Assembly: GCA_045546155.1 (NCBI GenBank)
Contig: JAZQCG010000003.1
Coordinates: forward strand, 4,727-68,726
DNA from: Candidatus Enterousia sp.
GTDB lineage: Bacteria; Pseudomonadota; Alphaproteobacteria; Rs-D84
DNA length: 64,000 nucleotides
Direction of reading: 5' to 3'
Shown here: positions 8,120 to 55,995 of the stretch, in pieces
How positions within the stretch are numbered: the first letter of the stretch is position 1
Layout of the letters: the number at the start of each line of letters is the position of its first letter
Position numbers and translations under genes: made by a program
Notes under the pieces: model-generated
What the model saw: the letters and a program-made list of their open reading frames with translations, nothing else
Database searches by the model: none
What the model was told of the DNA's origin: nothing

Positions 8120-8557
8120 TTAATCAGCCATGGTAGAGAACATTGCAGACCGGAATTTAGGAGTGTACATAGCGTTTGCCGCACAGTTATACGCACAGTT
8201 GTACGCGCAATTACCGACGGTTGCGCTGGCGAACACCCAGGACGACACGGCGGGACTGGTCATTTTACACCAGCAACTTGTATTGTCCGTATTAGAGGAA
8301 GTGCTTACTGTTGATAGGGTTGTTGCGGTGGTAACATCTGGGGCAGCAGTATTGGAACATGCAGCTATGCCTTTAATTGGTATTGTCGTGTCTGGGTCTG
8401 GCATACATGATGCTTCCCAGTCTGCCTTGCCATACCAGTTTGATATTGTTGATGAACATGTTGTGTTATTGGCGTTCAATGCCACGCATTTTTGTACGGC
8501 CACCGCTGGCGCGGCAAGTATTGCACCAACCGCGGTTAAAGTTAAAAGTTTTTTCAT
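8120..8557 (-). CDS. Small secreted Cys-rich protein (CWCxM..SSWVF..CAxxCAxxC..FR motif)
   Basis: Signal peptide MKKLLTLTAVGAILAAPAVA after AAGGAG RBS; 9 Cys. Confidence 0.85.
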   Translation of the reverse strand: MKKLLTLTAVGAILAAPAVAVQKCVALNANNTTCSSTISNWYGKADWEASCMPDPDTTIPIKGIAACSNTAAPDVTTATTLSTVSTSSNTDNTSCWCKMTSPAVSSWVFASATVGNCAYNCAYNCAANAMYTPKFRSAMFSTMAD

Positions 8558-8776
8558 TTGTTCAACTCCTTTCTTTTGTTTTATTCGCGAAAAAACAAAA
8601 ACCACTACGCAAAACGAAGTGGTCAGGAGGTTAGTAACAATCTAATAGAATTGTGTGCTTATTCAATATATTCGCAACCCTCCTGACCAAGAAAGTTCAG
8701 GAGTCATATTCATCCAAGCGATTTGGATGCTATTAGCACGGGTTACTACACCCCATTATGGCAAATCGCCATAACA
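8558..8776 (-). promoter_or_regulatory. Structured 5' leader/attenuator with c4/CI-antisense-like architecture
   Basis: Several hairpins, two loop-complementary elements, mutually exclusive stems, and a terminator ACCACTTCG-TTTTG-CGTAGTGGT-TTTTGTTTTTT before the RBS. Confidence 0.65.
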
Positions 8777-8781
8777 TACAC

Positions 8782-8810
8782 ATTATAACCAAATGTTTTT
8801 CTTTGTTCAA
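8782..8810 (-). promoter_or_regulatory. Sigma70 promoter
   Basis: TTGAAC-17 bp-TATAAT on the minus strand. Confidence 0.7.
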
Positions 8811-8834: not shown

Positions 8835-8938
8835 TTAGTGATTAGTGGTGAGCCGTAAGTGGAGAGTAGAAGCACTATGATGTGCGGCATTCGCCGCACA
8901 CCGACACTAACCACTAGCCACTTGCACTAACCACTAAA
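8835..8938. repeat. Heptamer-repeat inverted-repeat element, copy A
   Basis: TAGTGRT-type left arm and CACTAAC/CACTAGC right arm; core 8872-8897 matches the reverse complement of 22058-22083 at 25/26 nt. Confidence 0.75.
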
Positions 8939-8975: not shown

Positions 8976-9001
8976 AATCCCGGCAAACGCCGGGATTTTT
9001 T
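8976..9001 (+). terminator. Orphan intrinsic terminator in a divergent intergenic region
   Basis: AATCCCGGC-aaac-GCCGGGATT-TTTT. Confidence 0.65.
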
Positions 9002-9085
9002 ATGGAATACACACCTAGTTATTTTTGAAAAATTACGTTGTATATATTAATCCCAAGGGCTTAACAAAACAAAGGGAGAAGATAT

Positions 9086-12000
9086 ATGACACGTAATTTT
9101 CATAATACTTTGGTTGGTATTTCTGTTTTGCCAGCATTGCTGGTTATGCCGGCGTTTGCCGAAACGGTCACAGAACGTGCCGTTATTTCACAAAATACAA
9201 CGTACACAAATCTGGTCGCGGAAAATATCGCATCAACCGTGGCAAATAACGGTGGCGTTTTCTATATGCAAGACGTACCAAATGTCGTATTGGATTTTGA
9301 TGGCATAACGGTCTTTCAGAATAATTCACTAAATAACGGCGGTATGGGTGGTGCAATCGGTAATGGATGGCTGTCATCTACGACCGGGTCTGGTTTTACC
9401 CAAGGGGGAAAAATTGTTTTCAACGGTGCAACAACCTTTTCCGGCAACAGCACCAATAACAACAACGGCGGTGGTGCGATATTTAACTATGGCCTGGGCA
9501 ATGCCACAAATCCAGATATTATATTCTATGATTCTGTGAATTTTGCCGGCAACAGTGTTACCGAATCTATGAATGGTGTTTATGCCGGTGGTGGTGCAAT
9601 AAATCATCGCGGTGGTATGATTGTCTTTAACAGTGATGCCACGTTCAGCGAAAACAATTCTGCATCCCAGGGTGGTGCAATTATGGCGGCGGGCGATATG
9701 ATATTTAATGGCGCGACAAATTTTGACGGAAATACCGCCGGCAAAAATGGCGGTGCATTGGCAATAATGGGTGGCAATACCACGTTTGTTGATGCGGCAA
9801 CTTTTACAAATAACTCGGCCGCTGGTGCATCTGCGATATATATCGGCGAATCCGCCGACACGGTCACATTTCGTGATACTGCATCTTTTTCGGGCAACAC
9901 GGGCGTTGGAACACTGTTGAATAATGTATCGGGTGCGACGGTTGTGTTTGATAATGGCGCGACGTTTAATTCAAACACAAATAATTTTAATGGTGCGCTG
10001 GTAAATACTGGCACGGTCACGGTCGGTGATGGTGATTTTGCATTTACAAACAACACCGGGTCTAATGGTGGTGGATTGAAAAATTCTGGCACCGTAAACG
10101 TAGACACATCCGGAAATATCCTGTTCCGTAACAACACTACATCCAGCAGTGCTGGTGCTTTGGACAATGGTGGTGCGATAATATTGGATGCATCAAACGT
10201 ATCGTTTGCAAATAATACAGCGGCGGCGGGATATGGTGGCGCAATATTTAACGCAGGTGATTTAACGATTGGCGGTGCAAATAATACTTTTTCTGGCAAC
10301 GTTGCCCAGGATACCAGTACAATAAAATCCGGCGGTGGCGCAATTCATAATCGTGGCAATACAAATGAATCTACATTGATTATTGGTACGAACGAATCAA
10401 CAAATACGTTTACATCAAATCGGTCCAGTGCATATGGCGGTGCAATTGTTTCGCGTGCGTTTGATGGGGCGGGTCAAAATTCAGACATAACGATTAACGG
10501 CACAACAACATTTGCAAATAATCAGTCCGTCTTGGATGGTGGCGCAATATGGAATTTTGTTGCACCAAGTAATGGAACAACGGGCACATCTGCAATCGTA
10601 TTTAATGGCGATACAACGTTCCAGAATAATTCAGCCGGCGGTATGGGTGGTGCAATCTACAACAACGACACCATAACATTTAATGGCGCAACAACGTTTA
10701 GCAACAATACCGCAAACGGCGCGGCAAATGACATTTATAACGATGGCACGATTAACTTTAATGGTGATGCAACATTGTCCGGTGGTATAAATGGTACAGG
10801 CACATTAAATATCGCATCGGGTACAACATTTAATATCGGCGCATCTGATTTAACCCAGGGCGCAATTAACCTGGATGGGACAATGCTGGCTACATTGCGT
10901 GCGGGCGAAAATGCGCAAATTAACGTCAGTACCGCAAATGGCTTTACCGGCGACGGCACATTGAAATTGTCATTTGATTCCGCCGGCACGTACAAGGTCT
11001 TTGGCAACGAAACATTTGCAAATGTCGATATAAGTAATCCTGTGTTCGATTTGGTTTGGAACGGTGGCGACGTAACTGCAACGACCAAGTCTGTGGATGA
11101 CATCGCATCACAAAACAATCTGACAACGGATGCGGCGCGCGTTGTGTCGGGTGCATCTGATTCCTGGGGCGCGGGGTTAAGTGAGCTGTCCGTTTTATTC
11201 CAGGAAAAATTATCGTCTGGTACGCCGGCCGATATCGCCGCGGTCGAAGATGCCGCCACCGCAATCAATCCAGAAAAAGCATCGGTCATACAATCGGTTG
11301 GTGTGGCGCATCAAAATACAATCGCATCACTGGTAACGGGGCGCATATTGGCGCCCGGCATCGGACGCGCCGGTGGGGATTCGGGGGTTGATTTTGGCGG
11401 CATCTGGGTCCAGGGGCTTTATAACAAATCAAAATTAAACGATGTGTTTAATGGCTATACACGCGGCGGTGCGGTTGGATTTGATGGCACGATTAATGAA
11501 GTCTGGACCTTGGGGGCGGGTTACATGTACGCGCATTCTGACATCAGTGCCCAAACCCGCAACACTGAAATAGACTCGTCAACAATGTTCATCTATGGTC
11601 AATATAAACCAGCCGCCTGGTATGCAAACGCGATTGTAAATTATACAATGTCTGATTACAGCGAAAATGGTAATGCCCTTGGGGTGCCAGTCAGTGCGGA
11701 TTATGACGTTGATATATTTGGCGCACGTGTTGCAACCGGATATGACTTTATTGGTGGTATAACCCCAGAAGTCGCGATGCAGTATATGCACATAAACGCA
11801 TCTGATTATACTAATTCATTGGGTGTATGGAATCATTTTGGAGATGCAGATTACTTAACCGCATCCATTGGAACAAAGTATGAATTTGGCTGGGTGTTAA
11901 ATAACGGTATTGTGATGCGTCCACAAATGCACTATGCGTTGAAATACGATTTGATATCAGACGATCATAATGTGACGGTAACGATGCCGGGCGTAAACGC

Positions 12001-12163
12001 ATACGTGTTAAATGGTGAACGCTTGTCGCGCATCGCGAACGAGGTTGGCATCGGCCTGGCGATGAATTATGCCGGATTTGAAATGTCGTTAAATTATGAC
12101 TTAGAATCACGCGCTGATTATACATCTCAAACCGGTCGCCTAAAATTCAGATATGAATTTTAA
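9086..12163 (+). CDS. Autotransporter with Chlamydia Pmp-like (GGAI/FxxN) beta-helix passenger
   Basis: Signal peptide; about 11 GGA[IL] motifs interleaved with FxxN; C-terminal ~270-aa beta-barrel ending YEF. Confidence 0.9.
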   Translation: MTRNFHNTLVGISVLPALLVMPAFAETVTERAVISQNTTYTNLVAENIASTVANNGGVFYMQDVPNVVLDFDGITVFQNNSLNNGGMGGAIGNGWLSSTTGSGFTQGGKIVFNGATTFSGNSTNNNNGGGAIFNYGLGNATNPDIIFYDSVNFAGNSVTESMNGVYAGGGAINHRGGMIVFNSDATFSENNSASQGGAIMAAGDMIFNGATNFDGNTAGKNGGALAIMGGNTTFVDAATFTNNSAAGASAIYIGESADTVTFRDTASFSGNTGVGTLLNNVSGATVVFDNGATFNSNTNNFNGALVNTGTVTVGDGDFAFTNNTGSNGGGLKNSGTVNVDTSGNILFRNNTTSSSAGALDNGGAIILDASNVSFANNTAAAGYGGAIFNAGDLTIGGANNTFSGNVAQDTSTIKSGGGAIHNRGNTNESTLIIGTNESTNTFTSNRSSAYGGAIVSRAFDGAGQNSDITINGTTTFANNQSVLDGGAIWNFVAPSNGTTGTSAIVFNGDTTFQNNSAGGMGGAIYNNDTITFNGATTFSNNTANGAANDIYNDGTINFNGDATLSGGINGTGTLNIASGTTFNIGASDLTQGAINLDGTMLATLRAGENAQINVSTANGFTGDGTLKLSFDSAGTYKVFGNETFANVDISNPVFDLVWNGGDVTATTKSVDDIASQNNLTTDAARVVSGASDSWGAGLSELSVLFQEKLSSGTPADIAAVEDAATAINPEKASVIQSVGVAHQNTIASLVTGRILAPGIGRAGGDSGVDFGGIWVQGLYNKSKLNDVFNGYTRGGAVGFDGTINEVWTLGAGYMYAHSDISAQTRNTEIDSSTMFIYGQYKPAAWYANAIVNYTMSDYSENGNALGVPVSADYDVDIFGARVATGYDFIGGITPEVAMQYMHINASDYTNSLGVWNHFGDADYLTASIGTKYEFGWVLNNGIVMRPQMHYALKYDLISDDHNVTVTMPGVNAYVLNGERLSRIANEVGIGLAMNYAGFEMSLNYDLESRADYTSQTGRLKFRYEF

Positions 12164-22030: not shown

Positions 22031-22117
22031 TTAGTGGTTAGTGACAAGTGATGGCAAGCGGCGAATGCCGCACGTCATAGTGCATTCACTATCCACTAAC
22101 CACTTGCACTAACCACT
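22031..22117. repeat. Heptamer-repeat inverted-repeat element, copy B (inverted relative to A)
   Basis: TTAGTGGTTAGTG...GCGGCGAATGCCGCACGTCATAGTGC...CACTAACCACTTGCACTAACCACT. Confidence 0.75.
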
Positions 22118-22238
22118 GTTGTATAAATTTTTCGACAAAATGCTTGACTTTTGGTGTAAAAAATATAGAATTTGCATAAACTTTTCGACAAAGTGCGAAA
22201 AATAACGATAAAATAACAATAATAAAAAGGAAAGATAG

Positions 22239-51737: not shown

Positions 51738-51800
51738 TTGTTAGCACTGGTGTGGGGCATTATCCCCCACACCCTAACCACTAGCCACTAACAACTAAAA
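51738..51800. repeat. Heptamer-repeat element with GC hairpin, copy C
   Basis: GTGTGGGG-cattatc-CCCCACAC flanked by TAGTTGTTAG and CTAACCACTAGCCACTAACAACTAA. Confidence 0.6.
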
Positions 51801-55949: not shown

Positions 55950-55995
55950 TAAGTGGTTAGCAAAACACTAATCACTAACCACTTGCACTAATCAC
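55950..55995. repeat. Heptamer-repeat element, copy D
   Basis: AAGTGGTTAG...CACTAATCACTAACCACTTGCACTAATCAC. Confidence 0.65.

Follow-up and report, generated by a model that had tools for sequence, protein, structure and literature searches.

A multicopy pseudoknotted RNA leader in Candidatus Enterousia that probably acts as a conditional terminator and looks like a larger form of sRNA-Xcc1

From our reading of the sequence, a ~190-nt RNA is predicted to start at its own promoter on the minus strand of the window (the whole stretch of 64,000 nucleotides that was analysed), upstream of a gene for a 145-aa secreted protein (8120..8557, minus strand). The protein has a signal-peptide-like N-terminus (MKKLLTLTAVGAILAAPAVA) and a Pfam search with it returned no family. 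The neighbouring genes encode PPDK and an autotransporter; the latter gene is divergently oriented (9086-12163) and specifies a 1025-aa protein with a Chlam_PMP repeat. The leader promoter and the autotransporter gene are separated by a GC-rich hairpin (CCCGGCGTTTGCCGGG, 8976-9003) that is positioned between A-runs and T-runs, resembles a terminator on both strands and yielded weak Rfam sRNA matches only. At the gathering score, the Rfam matches in the window were two tRNAs only, with none at the leader. The window also contains arrays of a TAGTGGT-like 7-nt repeat (8836-8847, 8905-8936, 22032-22118, 51772-51797 and 55966-55984; 12 matches vs 0.13 expected), which in places form inverted blocks around a GC hairpin. 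As only 4 of the 23 clusters in the genome were found within 400 nt of a leader, these arrays constitute a repeat family that is separate from the leader.

Going 5' to 3' along the minus strand, the region begins with a -35 box TTGAAC (8805..8810) and, after a 17-nt spacer, a -10 box TATAAT (8782..8787). Then follow: the hairpin P1 (GTTATGGC/GCCATAAT, 8755..8775); the hairpin P2 (GGGG[TGTAGTAA]CCC, 8740..8754), which contributes its loop positions 8748-8743 as 5' strand to a pairing, PK, with TTACTA (8637-8632); the strand CTAATAG (8730..8736), which is the 5' strand of a second pairing, Pa, with CTATTAG (8648-8642); the hairpin P3 (CATCCAA/TTGGATG, 8711..8729), which is variable and optional in the family and truncated in the window copy; element A (CTCCTGA, 8697..8703), which forms the hairpin P4 with element B (GGTCAGGAGG, 8679..8688, including TCAGGAG at 8686-8680); the hairpin P5 (8655..8678) with the near-invariant loop GAATATATTGAATAA; the hairpin P6 (CAAT[TCTATTAG]ATTG, 8638..8653), whose loop (8648-8642) supplies the 3' strand of Pa; the 3' strand of PK (8632..8637); and element C (CCTCCTGACC, 8621..8630), the alternative partner of B. 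The last 3 nt of C are common to the 5' arm of an intrinsic terminator (ACCACTTCG-TTTTG-CGTAGTGGT plus a T-run, 8590..8623), which is present in the minimum free energy (MFE) structure and is given as 35 nt upstream of the ribosome binding site in the window copy. The Shine-Dalgarno sequence AGGAG (8570-8566) and the start codon ATG (8557-8555) complete the arrangement (8555..8570). The promoter, the terminator and the translation start were read directly from the sequence. The RNA of the window copy folds better than 200 of 200 dinucleotide shuffles (z = -3.34). All the parts from which an earlier note on this DNA had composed a leader, i.e. the promoter, three hairpins (our P1, P2 and P3), the segments A, B and C, the terminator and the ribosome binding site, are present on the minus strand at these coordinates; Pa and P5 did not feature in that note.

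The earlier note had raised the possibility that paralogous loci carry such leaders, and this is the case. In the ~1.0-Mb genome (12 contigs), nhmmer recovered 18 copies clearly and a further 2 weakly, and the same 18 were recovered by a covariance model, R1, built from 22 short members (135 positions, 28 pairs). R1 found matches in 127 of the 151 genomes from the order (105/107 within the genus) and in 6 of the 149 that belong to other families of the class. Many genomes of the order contain at least 22 candidate copies, and order-wide the matches number at least 150 plus 1076. BLAST with the leader gave 0/16 in the other families of the order, where R1 later did find the leader, with 17, 17, 17, 9 and 1 copies in five genomes (the single copy being that of G028). 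A scan with an exact pattern in one genome per species returned at least 120 stretches; the matches listed were assigned to Candidatus Enterousia sp., to Alphaproteobacteria or Rickettsiales MAGs, to uncultured proteobacterium or simply to bacterium, and many of the isolate names among them suggest an animal gut origin. A blastn comparison of the leader with a phage collection gave no match. Contigs from three RNA runs matched only conserved parts of leaders from relatives, and these contigs carry no transcript ends. According to the accessible text of PMC12306168, Ca. Enterousia belongs to the uncultured order Rs-D84, all members of which have reduced genomes.

The genes that follow the leader are of a few kinds. 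Within the genome, 11 of the 18 copies precede paralogous proteins of 138-173 aa that start with MKKLL or MKKIL and have no Pfam match, and the remaining 7 precede unrelated genes, most of them with signal peptides and one XRE-regulator-like. The 138-173-aa proteins (8120-8557 and ten other loci) share a near-identical signal peptide (MKKLLTLTAVGAILAAPA), and their mature parts are divergent and contain Cys. Elsewhere in the family, the short-type leaders, from which P3 is missing, precede XRE/Cro-like proteins of 69-84 aa: a helix-turn-helix family was matched at E ≤ 0.01 in 21 of the best 24 matches in the genus, and 11 of these reach the Pfam curated cut-off. Other leaders are found in front of orphan proteins, mostly with signal-peptide-like N-termini and some of them Cys-rich, among which three have an Ephrin_rec_like match above cut-off and one is a DsbA. 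Genes for tRNAs lie at ~100-200 nt from the leader in 5 of the 30 loci that were scanned with Rfam (L013, L017, L068, L099 and L222), which hints that some of the leader-gene cassettes are in tRNA-associated islands.

The search for covariation in homologues that the earlier note had proposed was carried out on the model alignment (107 matches, 99 distinct), which was fitted to P1, PK, P4, P5 and P6 and not to P2, Pa and B:C. Overall, 91.4% of 3326 cells are paired, as compared to 69.3% in shuffled alignments and 36-50% when the partners were slid, and changes on both sides of a pair were counted in 739 cells (208 shuffled, 64-137 slid); the observed values of both were reached by 0 of 500 shuffles. 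For the fitted helices, where the counts lean towards structure because the alignment was fitted to them, the paired cells amount to 95.7% for P1 (with both-sided changes in 7 of 7 pairs), 89.4% for PK, 96.3% for P4 (A:B, the end pairs of which covary), 98.3% for P5 (both-sided changes in 5 of 5 pairs) and 96.9% for P6. The pairings outside R1 reach 82.5% for P2 (GC/AU/GU exchange included), 75.1% for Pa, on a rough alignment, and 97-98% for B:C. The conserved loop of P5 is absent in one family of the order. The leader is a real, strongly conserved, folded RNA.

The covariation also bears on another explanation, namely that we are looking at a repeated or mobile DNA element, or at a duplicated promoter cassette, whose RNA structure has no function. 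The high copy number would fit such an element, as would the similarity that extends into the signal peptide in the 11 of 18 copies before MKKLL/MKKIL paralogues and the tRNA genes that adjoin some copies. However, hundreds of compensatory changes preserve seven helices, the element also precedes unrelated genes, and it keeps to one orientation and to a fixed spacing from the start codon. The explanation is close to being refuted by the covariation, and we regard it as scarcely credible.

Both long-range pairings were also recovered in an alignment-free manner. The earlier note had proposed that the P2 loop pairs with a downstream segment, and in 125 of 140 members (one incomplete locus was dropped) the exact reverse complement of the 6-mer that precedes C occurs upstream, as compared to 1026 of 18106 non-cognate pairs; across the family, this position is occupied by 35 different 6-mers. 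For Pa, at least 6 contiguous pairs were found in 113 of 123 cognate cases vs 10.4% of the non-cognate pairs, where 17 of the 140 sequences were left out as incomplete, as duplicate or as lacking an exact PK 6-mer. The resulting topology is a nested double pseudoknot, in which the P2 loop pairs with the 6 nt before C and the strand after P2 pairs with the loop of P6. Along the RNA, the 3' strands of Pa, P6, PK and B:C adjoin one another with no gap between them.

The expression signals are conserved together with the fold. In 115 of 121 members (11/121 in a control window) P1 is closely preceded by a match to TATAAT of at least 5/6, and a hairpin with T-run follows C in 116 of 123, the scan finding no terminator in the other 7. 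In 96 of those 116 members the terminator overlaps the B:C helix, and since the overlap is only 3-6 nt, the mutual exclusion of B:C and terminator is partial. Within B, alignment columns 204 and 208 each covary with the A partner as well as with the C partner; A:B and B:C are therefore both maintained, although they are mutually exclusive. The nested MFE structure (without pseudoknots) with A:B and the terminator was calculated at -60.0 kcal/mol and that with B:C enforced at -53.5 kcal/mol. What the earlier note had described, a switch-like leader with its own promoter, a segment that pairs alternatively with A or with C, and a second stem that overlaps a terminator just before the ribosome binding site, was thus borne out across the family. 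In 17 of the 18 genomic copies our script placed an SD-preceded start 42-67 nt downstream of C, with the terminator in between; for the 18th it chose a false start, and the MKKLL start of that copy was listed separately. This distance leaves no room for a second promoter, and gene expression consequently needs read-through.

The leader probably decides whether transcription halts before the gene. Transcription would start at the sigma-70-type promoter of the leader; in a default OFF state A:B would be formed and the terminator would be complete, and in an ON state B:C would stack on the pseudoknot and withhold the base of the terminator stem, such that RNA polymerase could read into the gene. 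The balance might be shifted by a small ligand, a protein or kinetics as candidate triggers. Which of the two states is ON, and that the regulation occurs in cis, is what we infer from this arrangement. A covarying structured domain that shares nucleotides with the expression platform, as is present here, is a feature of the riboswitch/attenuator class. A search of the genome (97% complete) for Hfq, GGDEF and RelA_SpoT domains gave no match, which makes Hfq, c-di-GMP and (p)ppGpp unlikely effectors in this organism. Two other candidate roles were rejected. A leader peptide starting after the SD-like B was dismissed because loop lengths vary and the reading frame, as judged by eye, is not kept, and B is no general mimic of the SD sequence, as other families carry GGAAG paired with CTTCC.

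The sole recurrent Rfam match at the element was to RF02221 (sRNA-Xcc1), which was found at 9 of the 30 family loci with 26-37 bits, against a cut-off of 53 bits. These matches always span model positions 1-87, and in the alignments the outer helix corresponds to B:C, the two hairpins correspond to P5 and P6, and the linker corresponds to the 3' strand of PK; the flanks of the P5 loop, GAAUA...AAUAAG, are common to the leader family and sRNA-Xcc1. The window copy itself gave no match to RF02221 at E up to 10, and the best match in its genome (40.4 bits, below 53) is at another locus. This locus, a 19th element (contig C7, 8291-8378, outside the window), is nearer to sRNA-Xcc1: it has P1, P2, PK and Pa plus an inner hairpin in P5, and in place of a terminator its 3' end forms a hairpin over the SD sequence, the next ORF starting with VKKTLGNIKEVSIRDVW.

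In a phylum-wide sample, RF02221 scored above the cut-off in 24 of 151 genomes, with up to five loci in one genome among the matches listed. We took 20 of these above-cut-off loci with 170 nt of upstream sequence and scored Watson-Crick pairs only. An exact complement of 7 nt or more is located upstream for the linker in 17 of the 20 (vs 23/366 non-cognate) and likewise for the loop of the second hairpin (17/20 vs 7/378). The complement of the linker is in a hairpin loop and that of the second-hairpin loop is in a strand. The genuine loci thus carry an upstream module, both pairings of which covary, and RF02221 therefore appears to cover only the 3' half of a larger element. R1 gave no matches at genuine sRNA-Xcc1 loci, either with default filters or with the filters off, so that the link to RF02221 rests on sub-threshold matches and shared architecture; for this reason, and because the window copy is unmatched, we call the family a divergent variant and not a member of RF02221. 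In the long-type leaders and in the genuine loci (L230-L249), P3 can hold a hairpin with T-run between the 5' and the 3' module (12 of 20 genuine loci and 31 of 42 long-P3 members; absent in the window copy), the loop of which is often CCGTCAG among the genuine loci.

The genes behind the genuine sRNA-Xcc1 loci encode Bro-N/P22_AR_C or Rha proteins in 4 of 17 cases and a Rap1a-like protein in one, the rest having no assigned function. In the accessible parts of the literature, sRNA-Xcc1 of Xanthomonas is reported from integron cassettes and prophages, upstream of symE and upstream of an ORF6N protein, and it has been detected as a discrete 88-nt RNA, whose position coincides with only the 3' module (PMC2996969, Table 2). 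Within a limited search of partly accessible sources, the published accounts treat it as an 88-nt RNA or a trans-acting sRNA, and we found no description of the larger fold. The leader has the appearance of a known small RNA family in a larger, unrecognised version rather than that of a phage c4 RNA.

The discrete sRNA-Xcc1 raises the question whether the leader is rather a stand-alone gene for a trans-acting sRNA, with the terminated ~190-nt RNA as its product, in the way in which sRNA-Xcc1 and Brt1 of Bartonella are described, and the position upstream of genes being incidental. The leader does have a promoter and a terminator of its own, and in the Brt system of Bartonella, as far as the available text goes, the RNAs are abundant and the XRE genes downstream of them poorly transcribed (PMC5387305). 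Against this, in 17 of 18 copies the terminator is located between C and a translation start 42-67 nt further on, without a second promoter, which requires read-through, the competition between A, B and C overlaps the terminator, and the gene for Hfq was not found in the 97%-complete genome. We consider such a gene unlikely, and it is compatible with the cis model. The reading that we favour, and hold to be fairly likely, is that of a cis-acting 5' leader with a conditional terminator that represents a divergent, massively amplified and lineage-specific relative of sRNA-Xcc1.

The c4 RNA of phages is defined by its location in the phage immunity region, upstream of icd/ant; it is processed to a small RNA, through which translation is blocked and Rho-dependent termination brought about, and its classical target is an antirepressor operon. 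In the related arrangement of P4, with seqA, seqB and seqC, one segment is complementary to both an upstream and a downstream segment. The earlier note had proposed that the leader is a c4-like attenuator, on the basis of two short loop sequences that pair with targets in the same transcript. Two such sequences are indeed present (PK and Pa), and the one loop pairing of that proposal that differs from these, between the loop of hairpin 1 and hairpin 3, is at chance level: an 8-nt complement exists in the window copy, and across the 76 members whose P3 region measures 20 nt or more, cognate combinations reach a mean longest pairing of 6.84 and non-cognate ones 6.89. An assignment to c4 itself is not supported: the window has no match to c4 (RF01695), c4-2 or c4-a1b1 at E up to 10 and none at gathering score, and the leader is not in an immunity or icd/ant context, being followed by the 145-aa secreted protein and flanked by the PPDK and autotransporter genes.

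A c4/CI-like antisense mechanism might nevertheless operate, in which the 5' module (P2 loop and Pa strand), as a two-site antisense RNA, targets the 3' module, be it in its own leader or in others, and thereby triggers termination. Several observations would suit it: two short pairings connect the 5' and the 3' module; B is complementary to an upstream and a downstream segment, like the P4 sequences; the inter-module hairpin with T-run (12/20 genuine loci, 31/42 long-P3 members) could release the 5' module; antirepressor-type genes follow relatives of the leader; the 88-nt sRNA-Xcc1 equals the 3' module alone; and, in the accessible part of that source, sRNA-Xcc1, isrK and C4 are found side by side in the list for one Xylella genome (PMC12189769, Table 4). 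On the other hand, the 30 family loci yielded one weak match to the c4 clan (c4-a1b1, 24.6 bits against a cut-off of 46.7), none of the 13 genuine sRNA-Xcc1 loci that were scanned matched it, and the window copy has no internal terminator. Moreover, the 18 copies in the genome have 8 PK sequences and 17 Pa sequences in 18 distinct combinations, as is expected for folding within one molecule, and any pairing in trans would be partial. The cross-silencing of paralogues in trans that the earlier note had envisaged accordingly finds no support, and we think an antisense mechanism of this kind quite unlikely; among the relatives, the hairpin with T-run within P3 still leaves it some room. As an analogy, c4 is better than as a membership.

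We return to the cis-acting leader to draw out a wider and more speculative suggestion. Mobile elements could possess a widespread double-pseudoknot riboregulator, of which the annotated 88-nt sRNA-Xcc1 would represent only the 3' half. In the Rs-D84/Enterousia lineage, with its reduced genomes, this riboregulator would have been domesticated and multiplied into the main gene-specific switch, at ~20 or more promoters per ~0.9-Mb genome, and would respond to a single signal; we put this forward tentatively, as possible but doubtful. If true, it would represent a new riboswitch or riboregulator class that gates small XRE regulators and a secreted-protein repertoire, and a known Rfam family would turn out to be one portion of a larger pseudoknotted leader. 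As a regulatory RNA the leader is an orphan, and both its covariation and its copy number are exceptional, with well over a thousand instances within a single order. It suggests that uncultured gut bacteria with few protein regulators use RNA to control their regulators and secreted proteins.

Among the known systems, c4 of P1/P7 (clan CL00128) has in common with the leader the short complementary segments within one leader and, through the genuine sRNA-Xcc1 loci that are its relatives, the position before antirepressor-type genes. In contrast, its fold is unlike that of the leader, there is no significant model match, and the pairings of the leader build an intramolecular pseudoknot. The c-di-GMP-I riboswitches occur in many copies per genome before genes for surface and secreted proteins and use a terminator as expression platform. 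The leader family likewise is multicopy before secreted-protein genes and has a terminator platform, but its genome has no GGDEF or RelA/SpoT domain match, and the window gave no match to the Rfam riboswitch models. With sRNA-Xcc1 the family shares the B:C outer helix, the P5 and P6 hairpins and the linker that follows; the genuine loci are similarly upstream of, and co-oriented with, a small gene, and in some genomes they are multicopy too. It differs in that it has lost the inner hairpin of P5 and gained P1, that its copy number is far higher, and that its genes encode XRE regulators and secreted proteins instead of symE or antirepressors; in its accessible descriptions sRNA-Xcc1 is a trans-acting sRNA and not part of a larger leader. 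The last comparison is with Brt1-9 of Bartonella, which in the available text are described as nine copies of ~200-nt RNAs that have a promoter and a terminator, each immediately preceding a trp gene for a small XRE helix-turn-helix protein, and for which a role as riboswitch-like terminators was proposed (PMC5387305). The Trp proteins, at 108-152 aa as given there, are larger than the 69-84-aa XRE-like proteins behind the short-type leaders, and the likeness is one of description; as an analogy of function, Brt/Trp is the closest in print.
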